A DNA stretch of 64,000 nucleotides, from sequence record MT446421.1; one strand, given 5' to 3'. Shown here piece after piece: positions 515 through 48,016 of the stretch. Below the pieces are notes generated by a model that was not told the DNA's origin, ran no database searches, and was given only the letters and a program-made list of their open reading frames with translations. Source of the DNA: Escherichia virus TH55. The first letter of the stretch is position 1. Each line of letters begins with the position of its first letter. The translations under genes were made by a program, and so were the position numbers.

Positions 515-691
515 TCACTTAGTCAGCAGGTCGTAAAAACCGCCATTAACATGTTTGGGAGCCGAGACTAACCGAACAGCCAGCCGATGACAATCAGGAC
601 AAACATCATTATCTCTTTCAGAGATTTTCTTGATTTTTTCGTATTCTTTCGCGCAGTCATCAGATTGGCATTTGTAATCATAAAGTGGCAT
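515..691 (-). CDS. FmdB-like zinc-ribbon small protein (58 aa)
   Basis: Not in ORF track (<60 aa); MPLYDYKCQSDDC...CPDCH CxxC/CxxC pattern; fills gap between neighbours. Confidence 0.45.
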   Translation of the reverse strand: MPLYDYKCQSDDCAKEYEKIKKISERDNDVCPDCHRLAVRLVSAPKHVNGGFYDLLTK

Positions 692-692
692 G

Positions 693-1064
693 TTATTCCT
701 TAAAGTGTGCTTTCAACATCTGGTAAACGGTCCAGGCTTCAGAGTTATTAGAAATGGTGATTTTAGTCAAAGGGAATTCGCTTGGTTCAGATGTAGCTGC
801 GTCTTCGCATTCATCTTCAGTATCGTCATCTTTTTCTTCTTCAAAGAAACGGAATTCGTCTTCCTTTATGAATAGACTCACAAATTCACCAGTTGATAAT
901 TCCATTTTATACACATCACCATCTTCAATTCTGACTGGTCTAAATCCCTCGCCATTGATTATAGCATTGGCTATATTATCATTATCTGTGCATAACAAAC
1001 GGAATCTGCTTTCAGCAACATTATCTTTAAAATAATACCACTTATCAGTTTCAAATTTAGACAT
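693..1064 (-). CDS. hypothetical acidic protein
   Basis: ORF 693..1187 trimmed to internal ATG (1062-1064) with AGGAGA SD; resolves overlap with 1057..1281. Confidence 0.5.
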   Translation of the reverse strand: MSKFETDKWYYFKDNVAESRFRLLCTDNDNIANAIINGEGFRPVRIEDGDVYKMELSTGEFVSLFIKEDEFRFFEEEKDDDTEDECEDAATSEPSEFPLTKITISNNSEAWTVYQMLKAHFKE

Positions 1065-1281
1065 TATAAATCTCCTTCCAAAAATCTGTACCATCTTCTG
1101 ATTCTTCGCGGAACAGCGCATAGCTAGGTAATTCTGCGTCTTTGTCTGCATACACATAAATGATATCAGTGGTGCAAAGAAATTCATTGATGTTTTTCTT
1201 CACAATCACTTTATCACTTTCAGCAGTGTCCCAAAACTCTTCAGCGGTCAGGGAAGTGGTCACACAATCTTCATTAAACAT
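1057..1281 (-). CDS. hypothetical protein
   Basis: 74-aa ORF, ATG with GAGGAG SD. Confidence 0.5.
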   Translation of the reverse strand: MFNEDCVTTSLTAEEFWDTAESDKVIVKKNINEFLCTTDIIYVYADKDAELPSYALFREESEDGTDFWKEIYNV

Positions 1282-1329
1282 AATATTCTCCTCATTGATA
1301 GGGCAAAATTACCCTATCATTTTTATAAT

Positions 1330-1821
1330 TTAGGCACGATGAATATCAGCATACTCAACGATAAAGCTTTCAGGAACCACCTTAAAGGTTCCAAGGAACA
1401 CAATGTTATAGAGCTTAACGCCTTCTTCAACCCACTGGTCTGTGATGTAACCAGACATGCTAGTGGTTTCATAAGTACCAAAAGGTTCGTCAACATATTC
1501 AAACGGTTTAGGTGAAACAAAAAAGACACCTTTGCCCAATTTCCATTTAAAATCAACCCCAACATGAGACTGGTCAATGGTTTCAACTTCTTCGGTCACA
1601 GGAGCGATGTACCCAGTAAATTCGGTTGATTCCAGGAATTTAGGATGCACATAAGCCAATTGAGTTTCAGTCTGACCATTTTTAGGAATAATACGCACTT
1701 TAACTTCTTTAATTCCACCTACTAAATTAGTGCGAAGACCCACAACCTCAACAAAACGACCAGCAGCTTTAGAACGAGATTCTTTAGAAACACGTACAAT
1801 ATCACCAGCTTCAACTTTCAT
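1330..1821 (-). CDS. hypothetical protein, paralog of 1900..2652
   Basis: 163-aa ORF; C-terminal ITDQWVEEGVKLYNIV block shared with next gene; own promoter motif upstream. Confidence 0.6.
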   Translation of the reverse strand: MKVEAGDIVRVSKESRSKAAGRFVEVVGLRTNLVGGIKEVKVRIIPKNGQTETQLAYVHPKFLESTEFTGYIAPVTEEVETIDQSHVGVDFKWKLGKGVFFVSPKPFEYVDEPFGTYETTSMSGYITDQWVEEGVKLYNIVFLGTFKVVPESFIVEYADIHRA

Positions 1822-1863
1822 AATTTTCTCTCTTGGTTAATAAGTTTATTCTCCAGTGGGGTC

Positions 1864-1892
1864 ATTATACTCTGACCCCAAGAGTTTGTACA
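1864..1892 (-). promoter_or_regulatory. early-type promoter (sigma70-like)
   Basis: -35 TGTACA 1887-1892, 17-bp spacer, -10 TATAAT 1864-1869; upstream of 1330..1821. Confidence 0.55.
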
Positions 1893-1899
1893 CTTAAAT

Positions 1900-2652
1900 T
1901 TAATTAAAAATTTCAACAACCATGGAACGTGGAACAACAGTAAATTCACCAGCATGAACAACGTTCAGGAGTTCAACGCCATCTTCAATCCACTGGTCTG
2001 TTACCCAACCACAAATGGAACTGTTAAATGGGCGTTTGATTTGAACTGGTTTACATAACAAGTCAATAGGGTCACCCAGTTCGCTAACTTCTTCCAGCAG
2101 TACAGATTCACGCGGATAAAGGATAGCTTCAAGATTGTCACCTGATTCATTGACCGCAGTAAATTCAAAGATGCTTTGGTGATTGTGGTACTTAACTGTT
2201 TTAACGGTAAATGGAGCAAATCCAAAAATACCTTTCAGTACGCGCCAACCGGCATTCAATGCATTAGTATTATCAAAATCACCATATCCAACAAGTTGAT
2301 AGATTTTGCCAACTTTGATAGGAGTTTCTTCAACTTCCTTGAAGAGCTCAATCTCAGCTTCATAAACAATAATTTTTTCTACTTCATTAGTATCAAGGCG
2401 ACGTGCATGCAGAATATATGCGTTATAAAACCAGTTACTTTTTACAAAAGTTTCAACAATAAATTCACCTTCACCTAAAGCATCAGCCAGAGTATTATAC
2501 CCAGAAATCATAGCTGCGTTTTGAGTAATAGGTTTAACCAGATGATAAGTTTTGTTAATTTCAATAGTCATATTTTGTTTCTCAAGTTTTAATGGTTTAA
2601 TTGGGCGAACATACATACTTACAACATCAAAGTCAATAAATTCTGGTTTCAT
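1900..2652 (-). CDS. hypothetical protein
   Basis: 250-aa ORF; C-terminal VTDQWIEDGVELLNVV block shared with 1330..1821. Confidence 0.6.
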   Translation of the reverse strand: MKPEFIDFDVVSMYVRPIKPLKLEKQNMTIEINKTYHLVKPITQNAAMISGYNTLADALGEGEFIVETFVKSNWFYNAYILHARRLDTNEVEKIIVYEAEIELFKEVEETPIKVGKIYQLVGYGDFDNTNALNAGWRVLKGIFGFAPFTVKTVKYHNHQSIFEFTAVNESGDNLEAILYPRESVLLEEVSELGDPIDLLCKPVQIKRPFNSSICGWVTDQWIEDGVELLNVVHAGEFTVVPRSMVVEIFN

Positions 2653-2909
2653 TATGCAACCTTATTGAACATCGCCAGTTGATTAGGTTGTACAACCATA
2701 ATTTCACGACGACCTTTGGCGTTTGACACGTTCAGGTAGATGCCTTTGTTCATGTCTGTTTCTTTATCATATACCGCAATTTTATTGACAGTAAAGATTT
2801 TACCACGAATATTTGTAAATGCACATTCAAACGCTTCAGTCAGACCTGCTTCAGCAGCTTGAAGAGCAGACATTTCATATTGTTGGCCAATTTCAAAAGA
2901 AGTAATCAT
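2652..2909 (-). CDS. hypothetical protein
   Basis: ORF 2652..2957 trimmed: upstream 48 nt is the promoter/leader motif; ATG 2907-2909 has GAGGA SD. Confidence 0.55.
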   Translation of the reverse strand: MITSFEIGQQYEMSALQAAEAGLTEAFECAFTNIRGKIFTVNKIAVYDKETDMNKGIYLNVSNAKGRREIMVVQPNQLAMFNKVA

Positions 2910-2940
2910 TTTGTTATCCTCATCAGTAGTTGATGAGATG

Positions 2941-2969
2941 ATTATGTCTCTTTCCATTGGCCTTGTACA
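2941..2969 (-). promoter_or_regulatory. early-type promoter
   Basis: -35 TGTACA 2964-2969, 17 bp, -10 CATAAT 2941-2946; conserved leader CATCAACTACTGATGAGGA. Confidence 0.55.
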
Positions 2970-2976
2970 CTACTTT

Positions 2977-3660
2977 TTATCGTTTTTTCGGTAAAGATAA
3001 CGGGTCTGCATCTTCTTCGGAAGGAACTTCATCTAAACCAAGAGCATAGCGCTGGGCGTACTTAAGCATCAAAATATCTTTCGCGCAGTCATGCACCGAA
3101 TCATGCGCCACAAATCCATCTAAAGTCCCCTTTGGTAATGGAGTTTCACACATCTTACGGACGAGTGATAGGGCTTCGATTGCTGTCCTGATATCTCGCT
3201 GGTTCCAGAATACAACCGGCTCCAGGCCATAGGTATTCAATTCACGCTCGGGAATACCCTCATTGCGCTGTAGGTCACGGATAAGGTCAACAAACAACGG
3301 GAAGTCAAAAGACATTCCACGACACCACATAAGGCTTTCGTATTTGTTAATTCCATTACCATTCAGATAATCAATTGCCTGTTGGATACCGGTCAGAGTA
3401 TCAACATCTTGCGCAGAAGGAGCCAAGTTAACACGGGCTTCTGCTGATTGCTTTTTCCACCAACCCATGGTTGTTGTATCGAACAGACGCTTACCTTTTT
3501 GGTATTCAAGGCTAAACTTGATACGTTTGCCGCGATTAACCAGGGTTTCGAATGATTCCACAATAGCAGGGTCAGATTCGAATGTAATCAGAGCCAGGTC
3601 AATAACGGCTCCCTTCGAGCCGTTTCCCAGAGTTTCAAAGTCAATAATAGCATCAATCAT
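2977..3660 (-). CDS. dexA: exonuclease A (DexA)
   Basis: 227 aa; near-colinear with recalled T4 DexA (MxDxIIDFET...GFVAHDSxHDCAKD...). Confidence 0.85.
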   Translation of the reverse strand: MIDAIIDFETLGNGSKGAVIDLALITFESDPAIVESFETLVNRGKRIKFSLEYQKGKRLFDTTTMGWWKKQSAEARVNLAPSAQDVDTLTGIQQAIDYLNGNGINKYESLMWCRGMSFDFPLFVDLIRDLQRNEGIPERELNTYGLEPVVFWNQRDIRTAIEALSLVRKMCETPLPKGTLDGFVAHDSVHDCAKDILMLKYAQRYALGLDEVPSEEDADPLSLPKKR

Positions 3661-3737
3661 CGCACATCTCTTTTAATTTTTGAATTTCACCAGCAACCAT
3701 CGCACATCTCTTTTAATTTCTGAATTTCACCAGCAAC
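3658..3737. repeat. 40-bp tandem direct duplication (2 copies, 1 mismatch)
   Basis: catcgcacatctcttttaattt[t/c]tgaatttcaccagcaac at 3658-3697 and 3698-3737; spans dexA start. Confidence 0.85.
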
Positions 3738-3932
3738 ATAGTCGGAGATAAAAATCCCTGGCTCTTCATTGTTAAAATATTCAATCGCGGCCATACGTTT
3801 CCGAATAAGATTCAGTTCCAGCAAAACGTAATTACCCTGCACGACGATAGTCGGATTATCTTCGAAAAATTCAACCGCGTCCTGAATACCATAGATAAGA
3901 TTATCTAAATCTTCTTTATGTACTTTATACAT
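3687..3932 (-). CDS. hypothetical protein (dda.1 position)
   Basis: ORF trimmed to ATG at 3930-3932 with GAGGT SD; 3' end lies in the 40-bp tandem repeat. Confidence 0.5.
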   Translation of the reverse strand: MYKVHKEDLDNLIYGIQDAVEFFEDNPTIVVQGNYVLLELNLIRKRMAAIEYFNNEEPGIFISDYVAGEIQKLKEMCDGCW

Positions 3933-5253
3933 AATATGCGTCGTACCTCGCTCGTGTGATTCCAACATAAGCCAACTGGCTCGCTAATGAAGCTTCGGCC
4001 ATATGGATGCATGGAGTATAGATGAATGCTTTGTCCACTGAAACGCCTTGGGCCTTGTGGATTGTACTGACCGGAAGAGCACGGACTTTCAAGAAGGTCC
4101 TGCGCGCTTTCCAGAAGTCTTTCCACTCTGGACGTTTACCAGCGGCTTTCATCTGTTTGTATGTGTCAGCAACTTTCGCCAGATATGCCTGGAATTTTGG
4201 TTGCTGGTCTTCTGGTAAAACTTTGATGCGGTCAACCTGATATTCTTCATCTTCATCAATTGACTCAACTTCCAGGTCCCAGTAATTAATCACTAACTGG
4301 TGCGATTCGCCTTTACAGCGGAGAATAGTGGAAGTGTATTTGCAATCCTTGATGCGAACCAACTGACCATTATTAAAAATGGTTTCGCTGAATTTCTTAC
4401 CTTCAAATTCCAGCTCTTTCATGTGCGGCTCTTGCATAACCAGGACTTCATACGGTAAAAATGCTTTATCCGTTTCATAGAGCTTGCGACGAATAATATT
4501 GTTCAGTTTTTCAACTGATTTATTCGTGTATGCATACATCCTGTTTTCCATCAACATATCAGCATCTTTTACAATACTGAAATAGTTTACCATGAAATCC
4601 TTTAAAGCGGTTTGTGAGGTGAAACCTTGCACGCCATGACCTTCATACATACAGTCACGGAACCAGCCGCCATTGCGAATTTCTGTCGCCACTTCAATGA
4701 TAGGAGCATTGCTTCGCATGACCTCAGTCAGATGAATCTGTTTGAACTTAGGATGCGTAAAGAACGGGCTTATCTTTTGCTGTGTGCTTCCCGGGTCAAC
4801 TGGCTGCAGCTGGTGCATATCACCAATTCCAAGAATAGTGCACCATTCAGGAACAGAGTTAAGAATAATCTTAAACAGAGACCCGTCATACATACTTGCT
4901 TCATCACAAACCAGAACATTGCATTTTGACATGTCAGGCATTTCGCGCTGTTCAAAAACGTTTTGGTCTTCATATGTCGTTGGGTTAATCTTCAAGATAC
5001 TATGGATTGTATTCGCTGTTTGACCAGACAATTTAGATAAAACTTTTTTCGCCTGGTGAGTTGGTGCAGCAAGCACAATTCCCATAACTCCATTACGCAC
5101 TAAGTGGTCAATGACAAATTTTGTCAGAGTGGTCTTACCTGTGCCAGCTGGACCATTCAGAGTGATACATTCCCCTGAACGTCGCTGAATAGCTTCAGTA
5201 ATATAATCAAAAGCTTCTTTTTGTCCTGTGTTCAAGTCTTCAAATTTAATCAT
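3925..5253 (-). CDS. dda: Dda DNA helicase (SF1)
   Basis: 442 aa; Walker A GPAGTGKTT; colinear with recalled T4 Dda. Confidence 0.9.
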   Translation of the reverse strand: MIKFEDLNTGQKEAFDYITEAIQRRSGECITLNGPAGTGKTTLTKFVIDHLVRNGVMGIVLAAPTHQAKKVLSKLSGQTANTIHSILKINPTTYEDQNVFEQREMPDMSKCNVLVCDEASMYDGSLFKIILNSVPEWCTILGIGDMHQLQPVDPGSTQQKISPFFTHPKFKQIHLTEVMRSNAPIIEVATEIRNGGWFRDCMYEGHGVQGFTSQTALKDFMVNYFSIVKDADMLMENRMYAYTNKSVEKLNNIIRRKLYETDKAFLPYEVLVMQEPHMKELEFEGKKFSETIFNNGQLVRIKDCKYTSTILRCKGESHQLVINYWDLEVESIDEDEEYQVDRIKVLPEDQQPKFQAYLAKVADTYKQMKAAGKRPEWKDFWKARRTFLKVRALPVSTIHKAQGVSVDKAFIYTPCIHMAEASLASQLAYVGITRARYDAYYV

Positions 5254-5549: not shown

Positions 5550-5550
5550 A

Positions 5551-7708: not shown

Positions 7709-7978
7709 CTACTTAAACACTCCAAGTGGAACGCCAAAGACTGCAATGTCTACGGCCATACCAATCGGAGATTGGTATGATGGAGATTGATATGATGAGT
7801 AAGAACTTTTCGATTTTATCGGGGTTTCGACTTTAATTGTCTCGGATTCAGTCTTAAGCCTTTGTAAACGATTAATTTTTTGTTGCTCGATTTCCTTATG
7901 AGCATGTTTACGGTCGATATCCAGCGCCGATGTGGGAATATTTGTTAACCAGTTCATTGTTTCACCCATGGTGCCCAT
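7709..7978 (-). CDS. hypothetical protein
   Basis: 89-aa ORF. Confidence 0.45.
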   Translation of the reverse strand: MGTMGETMNWLTNIPTSALDIDRKHAHKEIEQQKINRLQRLKTESETIKVETPIKSKSSYSSYQSPSYQSPIGMAVDIAVFGVPLGVFK

Positions 7979-8133
7979 GGAGGTGGGTCATCGTAATATG
8001 AGGCCAGGTCGCGTAGAACTTCCATTGGGAGGCTAAAACCGTGCTTCTGTATAATCGCATCAAGTTCGTCAACTAGGTCCACACGGGCTTCCGTAGGAGC
8101 TTTAGGCTCTTCAAAAAGTTCAAATAAATCCAT
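7954..8133 (-). CDS. small acidic protein (59 aa)
   Basis: Not in ORF track; ATG overlaps upstream stop (TAATG). Confidence 0.3.
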   Translation of the reverse strand: MDLFELFEEPKAPTEARVDLVDELDAIIQKHGFSLPMEVLRDLASYYDDPPPWAPWVKQ

Positions 8134-10358: not shown

Positions 10359-10443
10359 TATATTTTTCCTTATCAATTCATGTTATTTTGTATGTTAATT
10401 ATATCATATTGGTTTGAAGCATAAATACACGGAAGGAGGATAT

Positions 10444-10641
10444 ATGCTCAAACTATCTAGTCTAATTCAAGCCATCAAAGGCAGTCGTAAGCGAACGATT
10501 CTGGTCCTTTCGATACTCTGTTTAGTTCTACTCTGGAACTTCGTTGTTGCCCCTGTTGCATTGACACATGGTGTTATATTACCAGTCATTGCACTCGAAT
10601 CAGTTGTAGATATTTTACTGGCATTAATCGGCCTTATATAG
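10444..10641 (+). CDS. small hydrophobic protein on plus strand
   Basis: ATG 10444 preceded by GGAAGGAGGA; two hydrophobic helices; only plus-strand candidate, in the 56-61 gap. Confidence 0.35.
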   Translation: MLKLSSLIQAIKGSRKRTILVLSILCLVLLWNFVVAPVALTHGVILPVIALESVVDILLALIGLI

Positions 10642-10759
10642 ATGGAATAATGTGAATATTATTCCATCGGATTTGGAAATTAACCAGTAAGAAAGACAAG
10701 AAACATCATGGGCTTTTTAGCTCTTGATGTTTTTCTGTGGAACTTACCGGAATCCCTTC

Positions 10760-11788: not shown

Positions 11789-12007
11789 AGTTTCCTCATT
11801 TCAATGGCCCCGAAGGACCATTATACTGTAGGTTTATCGTCTTTATTCTTACGCTTTTTTGATGGGATTTGTTCAGGGCCTTTATTGACAACTGCCCCGG
11901 AAGTGGTACCTGTTGCGATATTAGTTGGGTTTCCACCTGCATCACCGGCAGCCATATCTTCGTTGATAAAATCTTTGAATGTTTTCATAACACCCCCTTT
12001 CCGCTAT

Positions 12008-21086: not shown

Positions 21087-21150
21087 TTGGTTTCCTTTAT
21101 AGTCGAGTGATTGACTTTTGTTTATGACTTGATGTTATTATACTACAAAA

Positions 21151-21164
21151 GGGACCGAAGTCCC
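21151..21164 (-). terminator. rho-independent terminator after regA
   Basis: GGGAC-TTCG-GTCCC hairpin then TTTTGT. Confidence 0.65.
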
Positions 21165-21175
21165 TTTGCTTTAAA

Positions 21176-21544
21176 TTAATTGCCAATTGTGTATTTGGCT
21201 ACGAGCTTCCAGTCGTCTTTTTGTTTAAAGGAGATAACACGGAAGTTGTTTGTTACTGCAAACAATTCATTATGCTCTTCTTCTTTGATAGTGATTAAGC
21301 CCCAGTCTTCGAGCAGTTGAGCGATGGAATCACGGCGCTGATAGTCTTCACCATCAATATCCACCTGGCGGCCATCCATGCGCAGCATTTCTTTGAAGTG
21401 AACAATATAGTAACGGCCTTGCTTTTGGAGGATGTGACAGCTCTGGTAAAGTACACGGTCTTTATTATTTGCGATGCCCATACGGGTCAGAGTTTCTTTA
21501 ACTTTCAGGAAGTCTTCAGGTTGCTTTAATGTAATTTCAATCAT
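21176..21544 (-). CDS. regA: translational repressor RegA
   Basis: 122 aa; near-identical to recalled T4 RegA. Confidence 0.9.
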   Translation of the reverse strand: MIEITLKQPEDFLKVKETLTRMGIANNKDRVLYQSCHILQKQGRYYIVHFKEMLRMDGRQVDIDGEDYQRRDSIAQLLEDWGLITIKEEEHNELFAVTNNFRVISFKQKDDWKLVAKYTIGN

Positions 21545-21545: not shown

Positions 21546-22124
21546 TTACCATTCCAATATTTGTTTTTTAATTTCTTTTTGTTCTTTCACATTACTGGTA
21601 ACGGTCTTTAAGAATTCATCCGTCACCAGACCTTTTGTCTTTTTCAAAACATCTTTAAGACTACCTTTGACTTTCAATGTTTCCATATACATCAAAGCAT
21701 CATCTGCATTAATTGTATAATATTTCATTAAAAGCTTTAACACAAGCTGGACGCTGACTACATCCGGCTCAGCCTTAGCCCATTTGCCATAACGCTTGCC
21801 TTGTGGAACCGCATGCAGCAAATAATTATAATGCTGTTGGTCTGTTAACCCGGAACCGATTAAGTTCATCACGTTCACCTGCATGATGCAATCGACATGT
21901 TGGCTCAATGCGTTTTCTAACCAGAATTTATTGTAGTTTTCCGATTGAATCAGGTTTCGTGGTTTTTTACTAACGGTTATGTCATTAAGAATCGCGAACA
22001 ATTCATTTTCTGCTTTCTCTTTGTATGAATCGGACAATTCCTGAATTTTGTTAAAGTCGCGTGATTTCCACGCAACCTCATGTTCGTTTAATTGAACGTC
22101 ATCATCAAAGAGACTTACAGCCAT
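21546..22124 (-). CDS. 62: clamp loader small subunit gp62
   Basis: 192 aa; colinear with recalled T4 gp62. Confidence 0.85.
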   Translation of the reverse strand: MAVSLFDDDVQLNEHEVAWKSRDFNKIQELSDSYKEKAENELFAILNDITVSKKPRNLIQSENYNKFWLENALSQHVDCIMQVNVMNLIGSGLTDQQHYNYLLHAVPQGKRYGKWAKAEPDVVSVQLVLKLLMKYYTINADDALMYMETLKVKGSLKDVLKKTKGLVTDEFLKTVTSNVKEQKEIKKQILEW

Positions 22125-27666: not shown

Positions 27667-27806
27667 AAGCCAAGCGCCGTTATCGCAGTGCAAAATAAAA
27701 TTATTGAAATGAACCCGTCAGGAGTAGAAAAGAATCCTATCCAACAAGCTCGTGTGAATGTGTAGAATGCCATGAATAACACAACATATCCTAAAAATAA
27801 TTCCAT
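27663..27806 (-). CDS. small membrane protein (47 aa)
   Basis: Not in ORF track; GAGGAG SD; stop overlaps gp47 ATG (ATGA). Confidence 0.4.
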   Translation of the reverse strand: MELFLGYVVLFMAFYTFTRACWIGFFSTPDGFISIILFCTAITALGL

Positions 27807-27855
27807 ATAATCTCCTCAGTTGGTTCATTTTATCATCCCGAATATAAAGCAAAAA

Positions 27856-27872
27856 GGAAGCACTAGGCTTCC
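27856..27872 (-). terminator. terminator-like hairpin
   Basis: GGAAGC-loop-GCTTCC followed by TTTTT on minus strand. Confidence 0.5.
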
Positions 27873-28036
27873 TTTCCAATTAATACACCATACAGAGGTT
27901 CGCGATTAGACTTGAACTTGATTTTCTTATGGGTAATAGTACCTTCATTTTCTGCTTTAATACGAGCGGCTTCAAATTGAAGTATCATCTCATTTTTATC
28001 AGATTTAATCTTATCAAAATCCGTCGAATTCGTCAT
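27863..28036 (-). CDS. small protein (57 aa)
   Basis: Not in ORF track; GAGGT SD; stop lies in loop of terminator hairpin. Confidence 0.3.
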   Translation of the reverse strand: MTNSTDFDKIKSDKNEMILQFEAARIKAENEGTITHKKIKFKSNREPLYGVLIGKEA

Positions 28037-29511: not shown

Positions 29512-29778
29512 TTAGCGAAGTAAACAGTAAGCCTGAAAGACCTTCTCCATAATTGCCTTAAATTCATGAATGTCAATATAAGGGATAACCTCGGCATCGC
29601 TAATGAATTCCATCAGGCGGTCATGTTCGTTGCGGTATTGCCCTTCATTCAGCATACTAATATGGGACTCCCAAGAGCCGTACCCTTCTGCGTGCGGGAA
29701 GAATGTTATTTTCATAAATTCATCCACCCAAAACGTTCCCAGGTCCTGGACGGATATCATTGTATGATTGATGTGCAT
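29512..29778 (-). CDS. hypothetical protein
   Basis: 88-aa ORF. Confidence 0.45.
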   Translation of the reverse strand: MHINHTMISVQDLGTFWVDEFMKITFFPHAEGYGSWESHISMLNEGQYRNEHDRLMEFISDAEVIPYIDIHEFKAIMEKVFQAYCLLR

Positions 29779-31322: not shown

Positions 31323-31577
31323 TTACCTCAACAGTTTGTATCCAATAAGATTTTTAATGTACTGAATATCTTTGACATCCAAATCCAACTTAAGGTCTTT
31401 CAGACGGTCGCACAGGGTCAAAAAGGTTACATGCTTCCAATTCTTCACTGGGCAACAATAAGTCTTAGGACCATTTGCAATTTCAATATTCTTATCAGTG
31501 ACGGTGAGAAAAATTAGGCGCTCATCATCCAGATTAAGGGTAATGATATTTTTCATTGAGTGTAATTTCAGGCTCAT
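31323..31577 (-). CDS. hypothetical protein
   Basis: 84-aa ORF. Confidence 0.45.
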   Translation of the reverse strand: MSLKLHSMKNIITLNLDDERLIFLTVTDKNIEIANGPKTYCCPVKNWKHVTFLTLCDRLKDLKLDLDVKDIQYIKNLIGYKLLR

Positions 31578-31750
31578 AATTTAATTTCCTTAGCTATCGA
31601 ACAAAACACTCCACGGTCACAAATCATTTTAATACCAAGGTCAATTATGGTATACCACACATCCAGGCTAGATATTTCAGTTACTAAAACAGCTTTGCCG
31701 TTGATTGAATAATACTGGTTGACTTTAATTTCTTTATCTTCAATAACCAT
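31574..31750 (-). CDS. small protein (58 aa)
   Basis: ORF 31574..31828 trimmed: upstream part is the promoter/leader motif; ATG 31748-31750 with GAGGA SD. Confidence 0.45.
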   Translation of the reverse strand: MVIEDKEIKVNQYYSINGKAVLVTEISSLDVWYTIIDLGIKMICDRGVFCSIAKEIKL

Positions 31751-35531: not shown

Positions 35532-35708
35532 TTAAATCTTATAAAACGCGCGGTGTAACCGTTTAAATTGACGAATCATCTTTTTAGTAGGACGAGTATA
35601 CAATCCTACACAGGTGGCCATAAACTGGTCGGTAGGACTTCCTTTAATAAGAAGTTTCCAGACCTTGACACCATTTAACTTTTCGGTATAGACTAATGCA
35701 GTTTTCAT
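35532..35708 (-). CDS. small basic protein, PTKRQIR family (58 aa)
   Basis: Not in ORF track; ...RPTKKMIRQFKRLHR; ATGA overlap with upstream stop. Confidence 0.4.
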   Translation of the reverse strand: MKTALVYTEKLNGVKVWKLLIKGSPTDQFMATCVGLYTRPTKKMIRQFKRLHRAFYKI

Positions 35709-36007
35709 GCGACCTCAAATTCATTATCATCGTTAGTCCAAAAACACCAGAATGAAGCTTTAGTATCTTCAAACATTTCTTTAGTGTATTCGTATACCTT
35801 ACCATTGAATTCGATAGCAGTTACGCCAATGATTTCAGGATTGCCCCATGGAGAAATCTCCACCTTCAAGATTTTAACTTCAGCACCTTCACAGAGCTCG
35901 CCTGACTCAAAACCGCGATTGCCGTTTAATTCAGGCCAGTCAACATAATGGTCAACATCTTCTTCAGTAATACGAACAGTTTTACCTTCAAATTCAAATA
36001 AATTCAT
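35705..36007 (-). CDS. hypothetical acidic protein
   Basis: 100-aa ORF. Confidence 0.5.
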   Translation of the reverse strand: MNLFEFEGKTVRITEEDVDHYVDWPELNGNRGFESGELCEGAEVKILKVEISPWGNPEIIGVTAIEFNGKVYEYTKEMFEDTKASFWCFWTNDDNEFEVA

Positions 36008-36180
36008 CAGAAGGCCTCATCAGCAAAGCGAAGTTGAGCTTCAAGCCAATGGATATAATCCGCCGCGGCAAAAATTAAAGCAGATTCTTCATCAGGTAAC
36101 TTACGGGAATCCGACAGTTCATAAAGTGATTTTTCAATCAGGCGGCCTTTATGACGGCCAATTTCAATTTTGGTACTCAT
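36007..36180 (-). CDS. small protein (57 aa)
   Basis: Not in ORF track; stop overlaps downstream ATG. Confidence 0.3.
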   Translation of the reverse strand: MSTKIEIGRHKGRLIEKSLYELSDSRKLPDEESALIFAAADYIHWLEAQLRFADEAF

Positions 36181-38044: not shown

Positions 38045-39030
38045 TTCAGTAGCTCCAGAGCCTGTTCCAGTTTATCCAGACGATTAGTTGATTCTTCCCA
38101 AAGTCGCTTGGCTTTGGTATAGTCTTCAGTTGCCTTTTTATTAACAGCAAGAGCTTTATTATACGCCATTTCCAGAGCAACAATTTCAGGCGCTTTTTGT
38201 TCCACTGGCTCATTATTCAGATTATCAATCAGGTCTTCAAGGGTGGTTTCTTGCGGAGCATTCATAATTTCCTCACTTTTCTTTTTATAAATTTCTGCAT
38301 CAGTTGGTTGTTTTGCGCATTTAACTTCGCGTAATGTCACCACAATTTTCCAACCTTTCCAACCATGAGTACTGGTGATAGGGTCTACTTTAATTTTTTC
38401 AACAGTGCGCATATAGTTAAGGGCGCACTGCATCTGTGAAGTAAGCGTGCTCGCGGCATCAAGATACTTTTTGACATTTTCTGGAGTAGCTACCGGCGTA
38501 AAGAATTCATACTTAACTGTAATAATTACCTGGTTTTCACCAGACTCTTTAACATTTATCATGTGCTCAGCCAAATGGGAGATAGTGCGATAATCGCTAC
38601 CCATCAATTTTGTCGCTGATTTGATGATAGACATTTTGTTATCTCTGAATTCACGAGCCCAGCAATTTGCGAATTCAGAAACAGTATAGCCTTGTTTATC
38701 AAGGTAGTATTTTTCAACATCACCAAACCAATGATATCCAATTGTACCTTTACCATGTCTGGATTCAACGCCAAACTTATTAAGAAGGTCTTTATTAACC
38801 AGGTATGCCAGGACTCGGGAACCTTTAAAAGTTTTCTTGATATCATCTTTACCGGCACGGCTCGCAATAGTCGCAATGTCTTTCTTGAAGCGCCCGGATG
38901 CAACAATCGTCGAGTCAATCTGATTTAACCAGTAATTGATAATTAAAAGGATAGCCGATTCACCTATTAATGGTTTTACTTTTGCATCGATAGTGGTGTT
39001 AAAGGCCTGGATATATTCGTTACGTGTCAT
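38041..39030 (-). CDS. hypothetical protein
   Basis: 329-aa ORF; C-terminal coiled-coil. Confidence 0.55.
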   Translation of the reverse strand: MTRNEYIQAFNTTIDAKVKPLIGESAILLIINYWLNQIDSTIVASGRFKKDIATIASRAGKDDIKKTFKGSRVLAYLVNKDLLNKFGVESRHGKGTIGYHWFGDVEKYYLDKQGYTVSEFANCWAREFRDNKMSIIKSATKLMGSDYRTISHLAEHMINVKESGENQVIITVKYEFFTPVATPENVKKYLDAASTLTSQMQCALNYMRTVEKIKVDPITSTHGWKGWKIVVTLREVKCAKQPTDAEIYKKKSEEIMNAPQETTLEDLIDNLNNEPVEQKAPEIVALEMAYNKALAVNKKATEDYTKAKRLWEESTNRLDKLEQALELLK

Positions 39031-42304: not shown

Positions 42305-42320
42305 GGACCCCGAAGGGTCC
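42305..42320 (-). terminator. rho-independent terminator
   Basis: GGACCC-TTCG-GGGTCC hairpin followed by TTTTTTATTTT. Confidence 0.75.
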
Positions 42321-42563: not shown

Positions 42564-43527
42564 ACTTGTCCCAGAACTTCATGTCCACCTTCACAGGCAT
42601 ACCATTCTTAGCAGCCTGGATGGCCAGAACTTCAACTAAATCGACAGTATCTTCAAGAAGTTCTTGAACTTCTTTAAATGGTAATTCACCAGCTTTAATC
42701 AGCTTAATGATAGAGGCTTCACGCAATGGGAATACCAAGTCACCTGTTTGGTAGATTTCCATCAATTGATACCCTGCACGATATGCATGGCTCAGTGCTT
42801 TCCAGTCAATACCTTCATTAGCTTCAGCCTTACGAGCACGTTCACCATATTCGGCGTCGAGTTTATTCAGAGATTGCTTGAGCTCGATTAATGATAGAGT
42901 AGTTTGGTATTTACGACCGAGGACAGTATAGAACGTTTGAGGACCTGTTTTCTCATGGTTATGAAATACCCATTCGCAGAACTCGTTTTCAGGGAGCCTG
43001 TGTTTGATATCTTCTACCTTAGTACGTCGTTGCTTAGTGGAACCATCTTCTTGATAATCAACCCATTGTTCAGGAATCTGGTTAACAATTTCCAATACAC
43101 CACGCAGTGCAGCCAATCGAGAACCTTTAACACCATATTTGGAAGCTTGCTTACGGACGTACCCCAAATAGGCTTTCATGTTAGTTGTATAGAACCGCGA
43201 ACGGTTGTCTTGAATAAACTTCCATACATCTGGTAAATCGGATTTGACTACCAGGTCAGCCGGTGTGTGAATCATATCCAGAGCAACGGTTTCGCCTTCG
43301 GCTGCCAGTTTAAAGAAATATTTCAGGCTATAAAGTTCATGGTCAACATCATCTTTTGTATTTTTGGTAGCCGTGTTATTCGTGTTCAGGTTGGTATGGT
43401 TCATCGCGGTTCCGAGCAGGATATCTCGCGGATGAGGAACAAAGATTTCTTTAAAATCAACATCAGATTCCGGAGTGCTTGTTCCATAAAGATGGCTACC
43501 GAAGTAGCCTTTCATAACTGTTCTCAT
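42517..43527 (-). CDS. predicted nucleotidyltransferase (pol-beta superfamily fold)
   Basis: 336 aa; N-terminal GSHLYGTSTPESDVD fits hG[GS]x9-13Dh[DE] motif. Confidence 0.5.
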   Translation of the reverse strand: MRTVMKGYFGSHLYGTSTPESDVDFKEIFVPHPRDILLGTAMNHTNLNTNNTATKNTKDDVDHELYSLKYFFKLAAEGETVALDMIHTPADLVVKSDLPDVWKFIQDNRSRFYTTNMKAYLGYVRKQASKYGVKGSRLAALRGVLEIVNQIPEQWVDYQEDGSTKQRRTKVEDIKHRLPENEFCEWVFHNHEKTGPQTFYTVLGRKYQTTLSLIELKQSLNKLDAEYGERARKAEANEGIDWKALSHAYRAGYQLMEIYQTGDLVFPLREASIIKLIKAGELPFKEVQELLEDTVDLVEVLAIQAAKNGMPVKVDMKFWDKFVEEVYLDNHNSYYR

Positions 43528-43976
43528 TTCTTCGCCTCAAAATGGATTACCGGGCACATCTTAGATTTACGAGCTTTGATATATTGAATGAAAACGTTTT
43601 CTTTAATTTCCTTTCCTTCGCGTTTGGCTAGAATGCGTTGCCATTCCTTTTCTTCTTTACGTAAATCATACCAGGACCATAAATTCATTAGACCGTACAT
43701 AATGCCAAAGGATACCACTAGAATAAGGGCCAGTGTAGCCAGTCCTAAAATAAATCCTAAGCTTAAACCAACCGGCATGCTTAATACAAAGAAATGCTCT
43801 AATACACCAGCCCCCGCGACAGTTAATCCAAAAACCATACTACCGATAAAAACGGCACAAACAAAACAAGCCCAAACCATTTTCCAGAAGTAAGCACACA
43901 AAGAGTGTGGTCGAGAATGACGGTCATAAAAACGGTCGTGTAATTTAACGTGCCAAGAGTTTGCATTGATAATCAT
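43524..43976 (-). CDS. membrane protein
   Basis: 150 aa; multiple hydrophobic helices. Confidence 0.5.
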   Translation of the reverse strand: MIINANSWHVKLHDRFYDRHSRPHSLCAYFWKMVWACFVCAVFIGSMVFGLTVAGAGVLEHFFVLSMPVGLSLGFILGLATLALILVVSFGIMYGLMNLWSWYDLRKEEKEWQRILAKREGKEIKENVFIQYIKARKSKMCPVIHFEAKK

Positions 43977-43986
43977 AATATTTTCC

Positions 43987-44547
43987 TTAAGAGTTCATAG
44001 TTGGGATAACAGAGTTCAGATAAGAGACTAAAACTTTTAGCTCGTCCTTAGTAAATACCACTTCATTAAAACCATCGTGTACTTGGGTAATACATAGTTG
44101 GTCACGACCGTCATGTTGAACAACAGTCAGTTCAGTATTATAATTTAATTCTTCTTCGTCGCCGTCAAAGGTTTCGCTGGAGCGAATCAGTGCATCTTGG
44201 CCTGGTACTTTCCATTCGACTTCTGGCTTACATTCTTCCTGGAACAGTTTGAAAATACAATCAAAGAATTTATCAGAATCGCTAATGCTCAGACATTTTT
44301 CATCTGTTTCAATATTAAACCCACCATCGTGCTTATAAATGCGAGCGCATACATCATCGTTAATATCAAATACACCACTAAAACTACCGCTAAGATAATC
44401 CTGTTTATCTAAAACCTTTAAAGCATAAAGTGGTTTAATATCTTGGATAGTCAGTACGATTTTATCGTCTTCTTGACAAAGCTCAATTGCATTATTAACT
44501 ACTTCAGCGGTCAGTTCGCCAAACAATTCAGTTGTTTCAATAATCAT
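43987..44547 (-). CDS. hypothetical acidic protein
   Basis: 186-aa ORF. Confidence 0.5.
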   Translation of the reverse strand: MIIETTELFGELTAEVVNNAIELCQEDDKIVLTIQDIKPLYALKVLDKQDYLSGSFSGVFDINDDVCARIYKHDGGFNIETDEKCLSISDSDKFFDCIFKLFQEECKPEVEWKVPGQDALIRSSETFDGDEEELNYNTELTVVQHDGRDQLCITQVHDGFNEVVFTKDELKVLVSYLNSVIPTMNS

Positions 44548-44557
44548 TTTCTGTTCC

Positions 44558-44842
44558 TCAACGGTTATGTTTTAAAATACTATAAAGTGCTTCTACTTGG
44601 CTTGCATCCAGGTAAATAACATCATCATCTTGCTCAATGGAAATCCCACCGGTATTACCTTTAACAAAATTACATTCGCATACTTCAACTGGGCGGTATA
44701 CGTCACCAACTGGATGCTCAGGCTCCAGAACAATCACACCATTTTCAGAATTGCCGCTTGGGTCATATAACATTACATTTTCCTCACTAACCACGAAAAG
44801 AATAAACCGATTAAAATAGGACCTATAATCATTGTTGACCAA
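44558..44842 (-). CDS. hypothetical protein
   Basis: 94-aa ORF. Confidence 0.45.
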   Translation of the reverse strand: MVNNDYRSYFNRFILFVVSEENVMLYDPSGNSENGVIVLEPEHPVGDVYRPVEVCECNFVKGNTGGISIEQDDDVIYLDASQVEALYSILKHNR

Positions 44843-44864
44843 GCCCAGGGTTCTAAGTAATAAA

Positions 44865-45122
44865 TCATCTCATGCTCCTGTGCCAACAATTTCTTGGTTC
44901 ACGTTTAAAAATTTCATCATGCATTGATTGACAACCAACACAATATATCACACCTTTAATCGCTTGTCTCCGCGCTTCAGGAATTTTTTCGTCGCAGTCA
45001 AAACAGAATTCAGCAGACTCCCTTTCAACTGCAACTTGTGCTCGTGCGTGAACGATAGCGGCTTGGACAACCGCTTCCATCTCTAACTGTTCAGCACCAT
45101 CTTTTGCAAATCCAACAGCCAT
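44865..45122 (-). CDS. TraR/DksA-family C4 zinc-finger protein
   Basis: 85 aa; CFDC-x17-CVGC with IPEARRQA core typical of TraR/DksA. Confidence 0.65.
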   Translation of the reverse strand: MAVGFAKDGAEQLEMEAVVQAAIVHARAQVAVERESAEFCFDCDEKIPEARRQAIKGVIYCVGCQSMHDEIFKREPRNCWHRSMR

Positions 45123-45304
45123 TATTCTTTCAACTCATTCAGATAAGCAATTAATTCTTCTTTAGAACTATTCAAATCACGCTTGCACTGTTCTATTCCA
45201 GAATATGAATAACCTTCACAATATTCAACAGCCAGGTCATTGGATGCATTTTCAATGTGCCAGGCGAGTTTGATAATTTTTTCAATCTGTTCAGTAGTTA
45301 ACAT
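45122..45304 (-). CDS. hypothetical protein
   Basis: 60-aa ORF. Confidence 0.4.
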   Translation of the reverse strand: MLTTEQIEKIIKLAWHIENASNDLAVEYCEGYSYSGIEQCKRDLNSSKEELIAYLNELKE

Positions 45305-45308
45305 AATA

Positions 45309-45545
45309 TCACCAGTATTTTTTGATAGTAGAAATTAATTCTTGGACTTGAGTGGTCTTCAGCTTACACCCACAACCTTTTAAGGTGTCTTTAAGGAGCC
45401 ATGGCTCTTTGAGCTCATCCTTTTCCAGGCGAATTCTATATCCGCGGTAATCAGCAAATATGCTTCCGTCATCAAATATCTTAATTTCAAGAATATGATT
45501 ATTGGTTTCATATTCCAATGAAACCATGGTATTTGTAAGTTTCAT
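45309..45545 (-). CDS. hypothetical protein
   Basis: 78-aa ORF. Confidence 0.45.
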   Translation of the reverse strand: MKLTNTMVSLEYETNNHILEIKIFDDGSIFADYRGYRIRLEKDELKEPWLLKDTLKGCGCKLKTTQVQELISTIKKYW

Positions 45546-45748
45546 TATTCCACCACATATGATAATGAGAAAATTGCTGATGAAAGATGAGTAGCATCTT
45601 CTTCACACAGTTCAAATGGAGCTTTCTGCAAGAGTTCAACAACTTCTTCATCAGTGGCACTGTCCATAAAGATTGCATAATCATTAAGATAGATAACAAC
45701 CTCATCACCAGTATTAACTGCATCAATCTTGATATTTTTAATTCTCAT
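45545..45748 (-). CDS. hypothetical acidic protein
   Basis: 67-aa ORF with own promoter motif. Confidence 0.45.
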   Translation of the reverse strand: MRIKNIKIDAVNTGDEVVIYLNDYAIFMDSATDEEVVELLQKAPFELCEEDATHLSSAIFSLSYVVE

Positions 45749-45776
45749 TGTATTCTCCTCAGTAGTTGATGGGATA

Positions 45777-45805
45777 ATAGTACACCCTTTTTATGAGGAT
45801 GTAAA
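45777..45805 (-). promoter_or_regulatory. early-type promoter
   Basis: -35 TTTACA 45800-45805, 17 bp, -10 TACTAT 45777-45782. Confidence 0.5.
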
Positions 45806-45848
45806 CCCCTAAATGAAAAAAGGCCCACCCGAAGGCAGACCTTTTGAA

Positions 45849-46232
45849 TTACTCTAGTGTTAACAGATACTTAGTCTGAAAGAAAACTCCAACGATATCG
45901 TCCAGAGTCGATTGAATAGCCTTAGGTACAACTTTATAGACTCTTTCCGAGCTTTTAATCATTTCATCTAAAAACAAAATTGTATCTTTCGGCAAGTCCG
46001 AGGCGGACGGTAATGCAGCTTTGTATTGTTTCCCGCTGTAACCTAACCATTGCTCACTGAACTGGTCGAGTGGACCTTGGATTTCTGTGAAGTAGAAATC
46101 ATAAGCTTTATGGCGGGCGTAACTTTTGGTTTCAAGATGGGCGGATTTAAAATAAGCCAAAGAGACTAACAACCACCCAATATATGAATCCACCTCAGAC
46201 CCACGACCCGTTACGAAATCATCAAATTTCAT
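45849..46232 (-). CDS. hypothetical protein (rI.-1 position)
   Basis: 127-aa ORF downstream of rI. Confidence 0.5.
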   Translation of the reverse strand: MKFDDFVTGRGSEVDSYIGWLLVSLAYFKSAHLETKSYARHKAYDFYFTEIQGPLDQFSEQWLGYSGKQYKAALPSASDLPKDTILFLDEMIKSSERVYKVVPKAIQSTLDDIVGVFFQTKYLLTLE

Positions 46233-46515
46233 CTTCCAATTTTACCTTCATTAATTTAGCGTATTCGACTGCAGCAGCACGGCCATCAATTTGACATGTG
46301 ATTTCATTTACACATTGACTCTTATTGTTCCATTCAGTTTTAATAAAAGCCCAAAATTGTTCGGACTGCTCGACGCTGGGTTCTTTGAATTGCGAATAGA
46401 TTTGCATCGCACTATCTGCATACTGGGTAAATTTACCATCTGTCGCAGAGGACATATTTGGGCCTAAACAGCCCATTAGTAATAGACTTAGAGAAAGTCC
46501 TCGAATAAGGTCCAT
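46222..46515 (-). CDS. rI: lysis-inhibition regulator RI (antiholin)
   Basis: Trimmed to ATG 46513-46515 (AAGGAG SD), 97 aa; signal-anchor plus C-terminal region resembling recalled T4 RI. Confidence 0.7.
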   Translation of the reverse strand: MDLIRGLSLSLLLMGCLGPNMSSATDGKFTQYADSAMQIYSQFKEPSVEQSEQFWAFIKTEWNNKSQCVNEITCQIDGRAAAVEYAKLMKVKLEDEI

Positions 46516-46589
46516 AAAGGACTCCTTATTGTTGGTCATGATTACGCTTTGCAGCCTTAACATAGCGGAATACTAGTTAGTAACTGTAT

Positions 46590-46865
46590 TTATAATCTTT
46601 TAAATTTGAAACAATACATTGCAAATAAATCAGAAAAATGTCTATCAACCCATATTCTTTGCACTGGACTAGTCACAGTCAGCATATAATGTGATTTTTG
46701 TAAATTTATTCCATTTTTATTCGGGCATTCTTTATTAACAGAATGGTACGTGCTTGCTACTATTTCAATTTCCCTTTCATATCTCTCGCTATCTGTTTGT
46801 GTGGGAATAAATGCAATTCCAGCAATAACAAAAATAGAGATATACGTCCAAACCTTGTATACCAT
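46590..46865 (-). CDS. membrane-anchored protein
   Basis: 91 aa; N-terminal TM helix. Confidence 0.45.
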   Translation of the reverse strand: MVYKVWTYISIFVIAGIAFIPTQTDSERYEREIEIVASTYHSVNKECPNKNGINLQKSHYMLTVTSPVQRIWVDRHFSDLFAMYCFKFKRL

Positions 46866-46872
46866 GCGAACC

Positions 46873-47445
46873 TCAGCTTGTTAATTCGAGCCAGTGTTTT
46901 CTGCATAAAGATACGTACGATTCATTCCCACCGACTAACACTTGCTCGCCGTCCTTTACAGCAGCACCGTCGATTACTCTCGCGGTCATGGTTGCTTTCC
47001 GGCCGCAATGACAGACGCCCTTTAATTCAACCAGTTTATCCGAAATAGCCAGAAGTCTGGCTGAACCGGGAAATAATTGACCCCGAAAATCTGTTCTTAA
47101 CCCGTAACACATAACGGGGATATTGTAATTATCAACCACTTGAGCTAACTGGTCAATTTGCTCTGGTAACAAAAATTGAGCTTCATCGACCAGGACACAA
47201 TGGATATCCTTTTGAGACTCGGCCCATTTATAGAATTCAAACAGGTTCATGTCGGCCGTTACCAGGTTTGCTTCCTGGCTAATACCAATACGTGATTTAA
47301 TTTCAGATTCCGAGTCCCGATTATCAATAACAGGTTTTAGCAAAAGCACACTCATTCCACGCTCTTTATAGGAATAAGCTGCAGTCAGCAATGAAGCTGT
47401 TTTGCCTGCATTCATTGCTGCGTAATGATAAATTAAACTCGCCAT
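46873..47445 (-). CDS. tk: thymidine kinase
   Basis: 190 aa; P-loop AAMNAGKT, C-terminal Cys/His zinc site CHCGRKA. Confidence 0.9.
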   Translation of the reverse strand: MASLIYHYAAMNAGKTASLLTAAYSYKERGMSVLLLKPVIDNRDSESEIKSRIGISQEANLVTADMNLFEFYKWAESQKDIHCVLVDEAQFLLPEQIDQLAQVVDNYNIPVMCYGLRTDFRGQLFPGSARLLAISDKLVELKGVCHCGRKATMTARVIDGAAVKDGEQVLVGGNESYVSLCRKHWLELTS

Positions 47446-47454
47446 ATCACCTTC

Positions 47455-47640
47455 TTAAAGCGTATTCACATAAGCTATTAATTCGTTTTCTTTCGCATCA
47501 AATCGATTAGCAAATTCTTCTTGCTGTTCGGGAGATAGCGGGCCATATTCATCGTAAAAAGCGTTTGCTTCTGTATGCTCATCCAAAAGCTCATGGATAA
47601 GCTCAAACAATCTACTTTTCTGACTAATACTTAAACTCAT
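47455..47640 (-). CDS. hypothetical acidic protein
   Basis: 61-aa ORF. Confidence 0.4.
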   Translation of the reverse strand: MSLSISQKSRLFELIHELLDEHTEANAFYDEYGPLSPEQQEEFANRFDAKENELIAYVNTL

Positions 47641-47843
47641 TTCGGTTCACCATATCGCACAAATTTAGGATGTTCGCAATAACCAGAATGAAAACCTTCA
47701 CCCTTATGATTAGAACATCCTTTATTAGAACAGTACCACCAGTAATCAAATTCACATTCCATTTCGTCGTTGCATAAAGCTGCGATTACTGGCCATTCGC
47801 ATTTTTCACATTTGGCCGTTTTAAGAATTCGGGCTTGACTCAT
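47637..47843 (-). CDS. Cys-rich small protein
   Basis: 68 aa with 8 Cys (CEKCEW...CSNKGC...). Confidence 0.45.
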   Translation of the reverse strand: MSQARILKTAKCEKCEWPVIAALCNDEMECEFDYWWYCSNKGCSNHKGEGFHSGYCEHPKFVRYGEPK

Positions 47844-48016
47844 AATTCAATTCCATCCATAACCAAAATTCTTTTTCGTTGGGTCTTGAGAGCTTCGTTA
47901 GCCCGGTCATAATCTTCTTGACTACCGCTAGGCTGTAAAGCCGCTACCTTTTTGGCCAAGTGAATAAGCTTATCCAAGTTTTCAACAATACGTTCTTGTT
48001 CTTCATTCAGGCTCAT
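47840..48016 (-). CDS. small protein (58 aa)
   Basis: Not in ORF track; ATGA overlap with downstream start. Confidence 0.3.
   Translation of the reverse strand: MSLNEEQERIVENLDKLIHLAKKVAALQPSGSQEDYDRANEALKTQRKRILVMDGIEL

Follow-up and report, generated by a model that had tools for sequence, protein, structure and literature searches.

Thirteen open reading frames (ORFs) of 43-59 amino acids (aa), lying between positions 515 and 48,016 of a 64,000-nucleotide (nt) stretch of Escherichia virus TH55 (MT446421.1; the whole stretch is called the window below), are protein-coding and are under purifying selection in the frames that had been proposed for them. They are very probably ordinary small genes of T4-like early/middle units, belonging to the accessory 'ORFan' class of T4. 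They are also already known, as they are annotated and named in relatives and in T4. A first-pass annotation of the window had interpreted them as real small genes in a T4-type early region whose ORF track undercounts the genes. This interpretation is supported and it is right, but it re-describes known, annotated T4-type small genes which were hidden by a 60-aa cutoff; the sequence observation beneath it is confirmed in part.

Two stretches of the window, compared by megablast, are 100% identical to phages UPEC07 (MW250787.1) and TH22 (MT446396.1), both of which are T4-like phages of the genus Gaprivervirus in the Tevenvirinae. The window is contiguous in the TH22 record, which carries no annotation; the UPEC07 record is annotated and linear, and ends at window position 535. 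The gene model used here consists of the deposited UPEC07 coding sequences (CDSs) placed on window coordinates, 131 CDSs over 248-56842. GC skew and the ORF list agree that the minus strand is the coding strand throughout the window. The gene order is of the T4 early/middle type: 39.1, goF, motB, dexA, dda, srd, modA/B, soc, 56, 61, 41, 40, uvsX, imm, 43, regA, 62, 44, 45, 46, 47, 55, nrdG/D, 49, nrdC, tk, vs, regB and e. The claim of a T4-type early region is borne out by the 39.1-dda-modA/B-61-41-uvsX-43-45-46-47-55-nrdD-nrdC-tk-e synteny in a Tevenvirinae phage. The claim of a gene count above the track also holds: 21 of the 131 deposited CDSs are shorter than 60 aa, so a 60-aa ORF track undercounts the genes.

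All 13 coordinates given in the first-pass annotation are correct, and each denotes an intact minus-strand ATG ORF of 43-59 aa without an internal stop. The ORFs are listed below with the ratio of nonsynonymous to synonymous substitution (dN/dS, or omega), the accession of the deposited UPEC07 CDS and the main features of each. Shine-Dalgarno (SD) strengths are those of the anti-SD duplex.

515..691, minus strand: 39.2 homolog, 58 aa, zinc-ribbon FmdB-like (CxxC...CxxC); named 39.2 in SP18, JS98 and VR7; phrog_1076; dN/dS 0.06; SD -6.1 kcal/mol; starts 1 nt past the goF stop; QUL77752.1, cut by the end of the UPEC07 record
7954..8133, minus strand: modA.2 homolog, 59 aa, acidic, soluble; named modA.2 in SP18, JS98 and VR7; phrog_1647 (E 3e-27); dN/dS 0.34; TAATG junction with the modA.3 stop; QUL77736.1
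8612..8761, minus strand: modA.4 homolog, 49 aa; named modA.4 in VR7 and JS98; phrog_2681 (E 3e-33); dN/dS 0.15; ATGA junction at each end; QUL77734.1
17917..18060, minus strand: '42.1' (the VR7 name) or SP18_gp046, 47 aa, hydrophobic, directly downstream of imm; phrog_3610 (E 1e-26); maximum hydropathy 2.31; dN/dS 0.39; ATGA junction with the imm stop; QUL77713.1
27663..27806, minus strand: 47.1 homolog, 47-aa predicted membrane peptide; phrog_6693 (E 1e-30); dN/dS 0.17; SD -9.2 kcal/mol, the strongest of the 13; stop overlaps the gene 47 start (ATGA)
27863..28036, minus strand: a-gt.2 homolog, 57 aa; Pfam DUF5486 (68.9 bits, cutoff 27); phrog_2140; dN/dS 0.43; QUL77698.1
30888..31019, minus strand: 55.4 homolog, 43 aa; Pfam DUF5484 over its full length (112.6 bits, cutoff 27); dN/dS 0.12; stop abuts the 55.3 start (TAAATG); QUL77687.1
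35532..35708, minus strand: JS98 orf76 homolog, 58 aa, basic; Pfam DUF7279 (59.2 bits, cutoff 24.5); phrog_3272; dN/dS 0.10; ATGA junction with the upstream ORF; QUL77676.1
36007..36180, minus strand: Pin-like ORF, JS98 orf78, 57 aa; phrog_9092 (E 9e-41); dN/dS 0.09; TGATG junction to a 100-aa ORF at 35705..36007; QUL77674.1
36164..36313, minus strand: 49.1 homolog, 49 aa, very acidic; named 49.1 in SP18, JS98, VR7 and T4; phrog_2382 (E 4e-29); dN/dS 0.26; no SD (+0.8 kcal/mol); overlap of 16-17 nt at each end; QUL77673.1
36920..37096, minus strand: SP18_gp086 / JS98 orf81 homolog, 58 aa, acidic; phrog_9444 (E 2.5e-21); dN/dS 0.13; weak SD (-3.3 kcal/mol); ATGA at both ends; QUL77670.1
37093..37260, minus strand: SP18_gp087 / VR7ORF088c homolog, 55 aa, hydrophobic, likely a two-helix peptide; phrog_6756 (E 1.5e-30); dN/dS 0.11; weak SD (-3.0 kcal/mol); ATGA at both ends; QUL77669.1
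47840..48016, minus strand: ORF in the tk.3 slot, 58 aa; phrog_3452 (E 2e-19); QUL77642.1

Coding evidence for the small ORFs

Intact homologs of 12 of the 13 ORFs are found by tblastn at the syntenic loci of SP18, VR7, JS98 and T4. Nei-Gojobori counts pooled over 12 ORFs give a proportion of synonymous differences (pS) of 0.279 and of nonsynonymous differences (pN) of 0.073 in the proposed frames, with an omega of 0.22; in the two shifted frames of these alignments omega is 1.26 and 1.27. One codon pair contains a stop in frame, as against 172 and 315 in the shifted frames. Substitutions are distributed over the three codon positions as 96:69:265 (chi-square p = 6e-35), and omega for single genes ranges from 0.06 to 0.43. 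For 47840..48016, a comparison with phages DK-13, EAWsc9, PEi20 and KLB31 gives 0.25 in frame versus 0.99 and 1.27 out of frame. Conservation and coding potential in related phages had been suggested as a check on the ORFs; the reading frames are kept in relatives, and selection in them is purifying.

The ORFs also fill the spaces between larger genes. Genes of at least 60 aa leave 20 gaps of 90 nt or more between them, and a gap was scored as filled where a single ATG ORF covers at least 75% of it. Ten of the 20 are filled on the coding strand and none on the opposite strand; the mean in 1000 shuffles is 1.29 (maximum 6). Three additional gaps carry two or three tandem small ORFs each. It had been claimed that at least 15 gaps are filled in this way; this does not hold for the 13 ORFs, which occupy ten gaps, and about 15-17 is reached only when other deposited CDSs shorter than 60 aa are counted as well.

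Ribosome binding sites of the small ORFs resemble those of long genes. The median anti-SD duplex is -6.1 kcal/mol for the 13 ORFs, -5.6 kcal/mol for genes of at least 100 aa and -1.9 kcal/mol for 1484 non-start ATGs (p = 1e-5). The good SDs that had been ascribed to all of the ORFs are present in ten (-5.4 kcal/mol or stronger); in 36164, 36920 and 37093 the site is weak or absent. The description of several products as hydrophobic fits three of the 13 (17917, 27663 and 37093), which are strongly so; the other ORFs encode charged, soluble products.

Junctions, translation and public annotation

That T4 packs small early genes into dense, overlapping arrays has been textbook knowledge ever since its genome sequence became available. 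Among the 130 junctions of the deposited model, 27 are 4-nt ATGA overlaps and nine are 1-nt overlaps (36 exact junctions); overlap of any kind occurs at 61, and a spacing of 0-10 nt at 28 more. An exact 4-nt or 1-nt junction is present on at least one side of nine of the 13 ORFs, and on the start side of six. The start was said to overlap the neighbouring stop throughout; nine of the 13 starts do overlap the upstream gene, in only six of them as an exact ATGA or TAATG, and ORFs 515, 27863 and 30888 overlap no neighbour at all. Overlap is not significantly more frequent in small than in large genes (14/21 vs 47/109, p = 0.058); coupling is therefore no special property of the small genes, and overlap characterises the region as a whole.

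The small genes would be carried on long polycistronic minus-strand early/middle mRNAs, a scheme that draws on their anatomy and on established knowledge of T4 gene expression. The ten ORFs with their own SD probably initiate independently. ORFs 36164, 36920 and 37093, which have a weak SD or none and start inside the upstream gene, would most likely be translated by termination-reinitiation; two of these three (36920 and 37093) have an exact ATGA at the start, which is suggestive of reinitiation and nothing stronger. As selection acts on their sequences, the peptides would themselves be the functional products, and they are likely to be host-modulating or membrane-acting accessory factors. 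The 39.2 product is a zinc-ribbon protein whose T4 ortholog modulates GroEL; the 57-aa Pin-like product appears, from its sequence, to be related to the Lon inhibitor PinA; and 42.1, 47.1 and the gp087 homolog are predicted two-helix membrane peptides.

Among the other explanations, the one that survives best is that the ORFs are translated only as relays or leaders which pass ribosomes downstream, for example from 47.1 to 47, the peptide itself being irrelevant. The exact stop/start junction at one end of nine of the 13 ORFs would suit such a role, as would the overlap of the 47.1 stop with the gene 47 start, which the window shares with JS98 and T4. However, dN/dS is well under 1 for every ORF, which a pure relay does not need, and this low omega therefore points to selection on the peptides themselves rather than on mere relay ORFs. 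Recognisable domains are present (the zinc ribbon, the PinA part and the DUF families), VR7 has lost 47.1 and retains gene 47, and for ten of the 13 the downstream and upstream genes are in the same overlap regime as long genes. Relay translation is thus an improbable account of the ORFs, and ordinary small genes remain the preferred one.

The seven annotated and named T4 counterparts of the ORFs (39.2, modA.2, modA.4, 47.1, a-gt.2, 55.4 and 49.1) are early genes in the same slots, on the same strand and of similar lengths (43-60 aa). The window ORFs have tblastn identities of 42-91% with T4, and they share junctions with it, such as the ATGA of 47.1/47 and the 16-nt overlap of 49.1. Unlike T4, the window has no a-gt gene between 47.1 and a-gt.2. 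Two further T4 matches are unnamed: 42.1, which is an unannotated ORF there, and the Pin-like ORF, which corresponds to part of pin.

ORF 515..691 is the positional ortholog of T4 gp39.2 (NwgI) and is 91% identical to it over the first 44 residues; its C-terminus is longer. It matches Pfam Zn_ribbon_8 (PF09723) over profile positions 1-40 of 41 with 44.1 bits versus a cutoff of 34.4, and both zinc-ribbon CxxC pairs are intact (C8..C13 and C31..C34). At 58 aa, the protein is about as long as in JS98, SP18 and VR7 (57-58 aa), but T4 39.2 is annotated with 45 aa. In T4 (1172..1340), another frame immediately downstream encodes the last 12 residues; this suggests that the T4 gene, compared with its relatives, has undergone a frameshift or been truncated. 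According to a statement in PMC4396842, which cites Ang & Georgopoulos 2012, gp39.2 shifts the open/closed equilibrium of GroEL. T4 has 289 predicted ORFs, including more than 100 ORFans which are concentrated in hyperplastic regions (PMC4396842).

Peptidomics had also been proposed as a check, and existing T4 data answer it for some of the genes. In a dual-omics study of T4 the RNAs of the orthologs are classed as early, and 55.4, modA.2, a-gt.2 and 49.1 are detected as proteins by mass spectrometry (MS), 55.4 being an early protein (PMC9697503 supplement). A literature search on ribosome profiling of small T4 proteins yielded no relevant paper.

Several points weigh against the reading of the ORFs as ordinary, coupled early genes. 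For T4 39.2 and 47.1 the RNA is early, but MS gave no protein class (PMC9697503 supplement); the study itself remarks on the difficulty of detecting very small proteins with liquid chromatography-MS (PMC9697503). Evidence of expression is confined to the T4 orthologs, and it is from these and from the gene anatomy that we infer early timing in this phage; the individual functions are likewise putative. Translational coupling is inferred from overlap geometry only, and the coupling of 47 and 47.1 is not obligatory, since VR7 keeps gene 47 without 47.1. Constraint is weakest in a-gt.2 (0.43) and 42.1 (0.39), and few substitutions lie behind the dN/dS values of 42.1, JS98orf81 and gp087 against close relatives.

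A second alternative, the stronger reading implied in the first-pass annotation, holds that the genes were previously unrecognised and that public records substantially undercount the genes of this phage group. Gaps in annotation do exist: the TH22 record carries no annotation, 47.1 is absent from UPEC07 and SP18 and is a separate CDS in only six of 25 sampled records, the 42.1 homolog lies outside the T4 RefSeq table, gp087 is unannotated in JS98, and the tk.3-slot ORF is unannotated in EAWsc9. On the other side, absence from the ORF track is true of the mechanical track, because it stops at 60 aa, but not of public records: 12 of the 13 ORFs are CDSs in the identical UPEC07 record, and each of the 13 is annotated in at least one relative. 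All 13 fall in PHROG families, which were built in 2021, mostly over their full length (E 1e-11 to 1e-41). Five have Pfam matches above the curated cutoff (Zn_ribbon_8, DUF5486, DUF5484, DUF7279 and PinA PF10465); the Pfam search gave nothing above cutoff for the other eight. A search for any of the 13 without an annotated counterpart anywhere found none such, and the 25 gaps of at least 45 nt that are left by the deposited model plus 47.1 contain no ORF in which an ATG, an SD and conservation are combined. This alternative is therefore highly improbable.

Least probable of all, to the point of being negligible, is that the ORFs encode nothing and are open merely by chance, in AT-rich non-coding spacers such as promoter or terminator regions. 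Frames of this size (40-60 codons) can indeed be produced by chance, the six frames of the window having 452 ORFs of at least 40 aa, and doubtful tiny CDSs have been deposited (27718..27828, dN/dS 2.79, and 21097..21186, 0.87). But gap filling is strand-specific and far above the shuffles, in-frame dN/dS is 0.06-0.43 and the out-of-frame value about 1.26, stop pairs are one against 172 and 315, SDs equal those of long genes, family matches are mostly full-length and four T4 orthologs are seen by MS, so that the frame-specific selection signal refutes it.

As ordinary small genes of a T4-like phage, the 13 ORFs add little to what is already in public annotation and family databases. The practical lesson is that, in regions of this kind, a 60-aa ORF cutoff conceals roughly one gene in six (21/131 here). 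The deposited annotation is uneven: UPEC07 has 47.1 in the wrong frame, most of the sampled T4-like records give it no CDS of its own, and the 42.1 homolog is absent from T4 RefSeq.

Genes 47.1 and 42.1 and the tk.3 slot

Gene 47.1 is the one ORF of the 13 that is not annotated in UPEC07, and SP18 annotates nothing at the locus. T4 and JS98 both have it annotated, as a gene for a predicted membrane protein with a stop codon that overlaps the gene 47 start. Homologs are found in 600 phage records; in a spread sample of 25 of the records with a homolog, a separate CDS lies under the match in only six. UPEC07 has a different CDS over the same bases:

27718..27828, minus strand: deposited UPEC07 CDS QUL77699.1, 36 aa, in another frame and overlapping 47.1; no PHROG match

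This CDS is probably not a gene but a wrong-frame call over 47.1. Besides its lack of a PHROG match, its dN/dS is 2.79 in its own frame and 0.20 in one of the shifted frames, and substitutions at its codon positions are 7:4:0. VR7 does not have 47.1, and only 57 nt (29642..29700) separate gene 47 from a-gt.2 there; 47.1 is therefore dispensable in at least one close relative.

The ORF named 42.1 in VR7 has homologs in 313 phage records, and its product is likely a two-helix hairpin. In T4 (NC_000866), an intact 48-aa hydrophobic ORF lies on the minus strand at 21731..21877, in the interval that separates imm from gene 42. An SD precedes this ORF, its start overlaps the imm stop in an ATGA, and it is 50% identical to 42.1 of the window; the T4 RefSeq feature table has no CDS at these coordinates. 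Both here and in T4, then, a hydrophobic peptide is ATGA-joined to the imm stop. It can be compared with T4 Imm, the superinfection immunity membrane protein, and with other tiny T4 membrane peptides, but no sequence similarity to Imm was found. The 42.1 product may be a conserved partner of Imm in the membrane, and its gene is one that the T4 reference annotation omits.

ORF 47840..48016 occupies the slot of tk.3 and was considered as its ortholog. This was rejected; the ORF has no match in SP18 or VR7, where tk.3 encodes 70 aa and is unrelated to the 58-aa gene of the window, and a different family thus occupies the same slot. A candidate SLATT_4 assignment was also discarded, as its 18.1 bits are below the cutoff of 27. 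A tblastn search over the phage collection finds the family in 39 records from several Tevenvirinae genera, and it is rarer than the tk.3 of SP18 and VR7. The homologs are scattered among phages of Escherichia, Salmonella, Edwardsiella, Klebsiella, Enterobacter, Pectobacterium and Citrobacter, and this scatter points to cassette-like replacement of the tk.3 slot. The homolog in EAWsc9 is not annotated.

PinA-like pieces and other features

PinA of T4, an inhibitor of the host Lon protease, is a single protein of 161 aa. In the window, by contrast, three adjacent small ORFs resemble it, the C-terminal part coming before the N-terminal part. Two of these are 36007..36180 and 35532..35708. The third lies between them and was absent from the first-pass list:

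35705..36007, minus strand: 100-aa ORF, JS98 orf77, resembling the N-terminal part of PinA

ORF 36007..36180 matches PF10465 at profile positions 88-136 (of 136) with 28.1 bits versus a cutoff of 27, and it aligns with T4 PinA residues 102-145 at 39% identity (E 4e-8). A full-length PF10465 match was not found for it; the N-terminal part of the profile is matched by the separate downstream ORF. Judged by sequence, then, its product is a homolog of part of PinA and not a PinA. ORF 35705..36007 matches PF10465 at positions 3-74 (27.6 bits), phrog_2167 at positions 5-75 of 146, and T4 PinA at residues 9-79 (E 1e-4); its homologs are limited to 24 records. The C-terminal 15 aa of ORF 35532..35708 (...MIRQFKRLHRAFYKI) resemble the tail of T4 PinA (...MIQQYKRLHQMFYNT).

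The JS98 annotation has these three ORFs in the same layout. In SP18 and VR7 the place of the 100-aa piece is taken by a diverged ORF of about 90 aa; these partner ORFs do not reach the Pfam PinA model and align loosely with the PinA N-terminus. With Pfam scores of 28.1 and 27.6 against a cutoff of 27, the split PinA is a lead and not a result. It is conceivable, though rather unlikely, that in a JS98-like lineage PinA was broken into coupled, order-swapped small ORFs which possibly still work together as a multi-chain Lon inhibitor. Such an arrangement could have arisen by tandem duplication followed by loss of the outer halves. If true, it would be a natural fission and permutation of a phage anti-host protein, and it is the one item here that is possibly worth study as a case of remodelling of phage accessory genes.

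Three more small genes in the deposited model were absent from the first-pass list:

11821..11988, minus strand: 61.1 homolog, 55 aa, called 61.1 in SP18, JS98 and VR7; QUL77726.1; phrog_1823 (E 1.5e-31)
31574..31750, minus strand: 55.6 homolog, 58 aa, called 55.6 in SP18 and JS98; QUL77684.1; phrog_2283 (E 1e-32)
44773..44868, minus strand: VR7ORF105c homolog, 31 aa; QUL77653.1; phrog_12165 (E 7e-21); dN/dS 0.19

A further tiny deposited CDS, at 21097..21186, has no PHROG match and a dN/dS of 0.87, and looks doubtful.

JS98 carries an unannotated 53-aa homolog of the gp087 ORF at 38779..38937 on the minus strand, with 94.5% identity. JS98 orf81 is annotated there with a longer N-terminus (84 aa vs 58 aa in the window), which covers part of this homolog.

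The largest gap in the region, 10359..10759 (401 nt), interrupts what is elsewhere all minus-strand coding. It holds a lone deposited plus-strand ORF (10444..10641; 65 aa, hydrophobic, phrog_2024), overlapped by a 40-aa minus-strand ORF. Each of the two frames is open in SP18, VR7, JS98 and T4 and has a dN/dS of 0.46, so that this ratio cannot choose the coding strand here; only the plus-strand ORF has a PHROG match.

Product names in UPEC07 often look spurious for their T4-type slots. The name 'molybdenum ABC transporter' is given to modA.2, modA.3 and modA.4, and 'thioredoxin' to the whole nrdC.1-nrdC.9 series. A 55-aa membrane peptide is called 'ATPase', a-gt.2 is called 'prohead core protein protease', and 'major capsid protein' is applied to small early ORFs.

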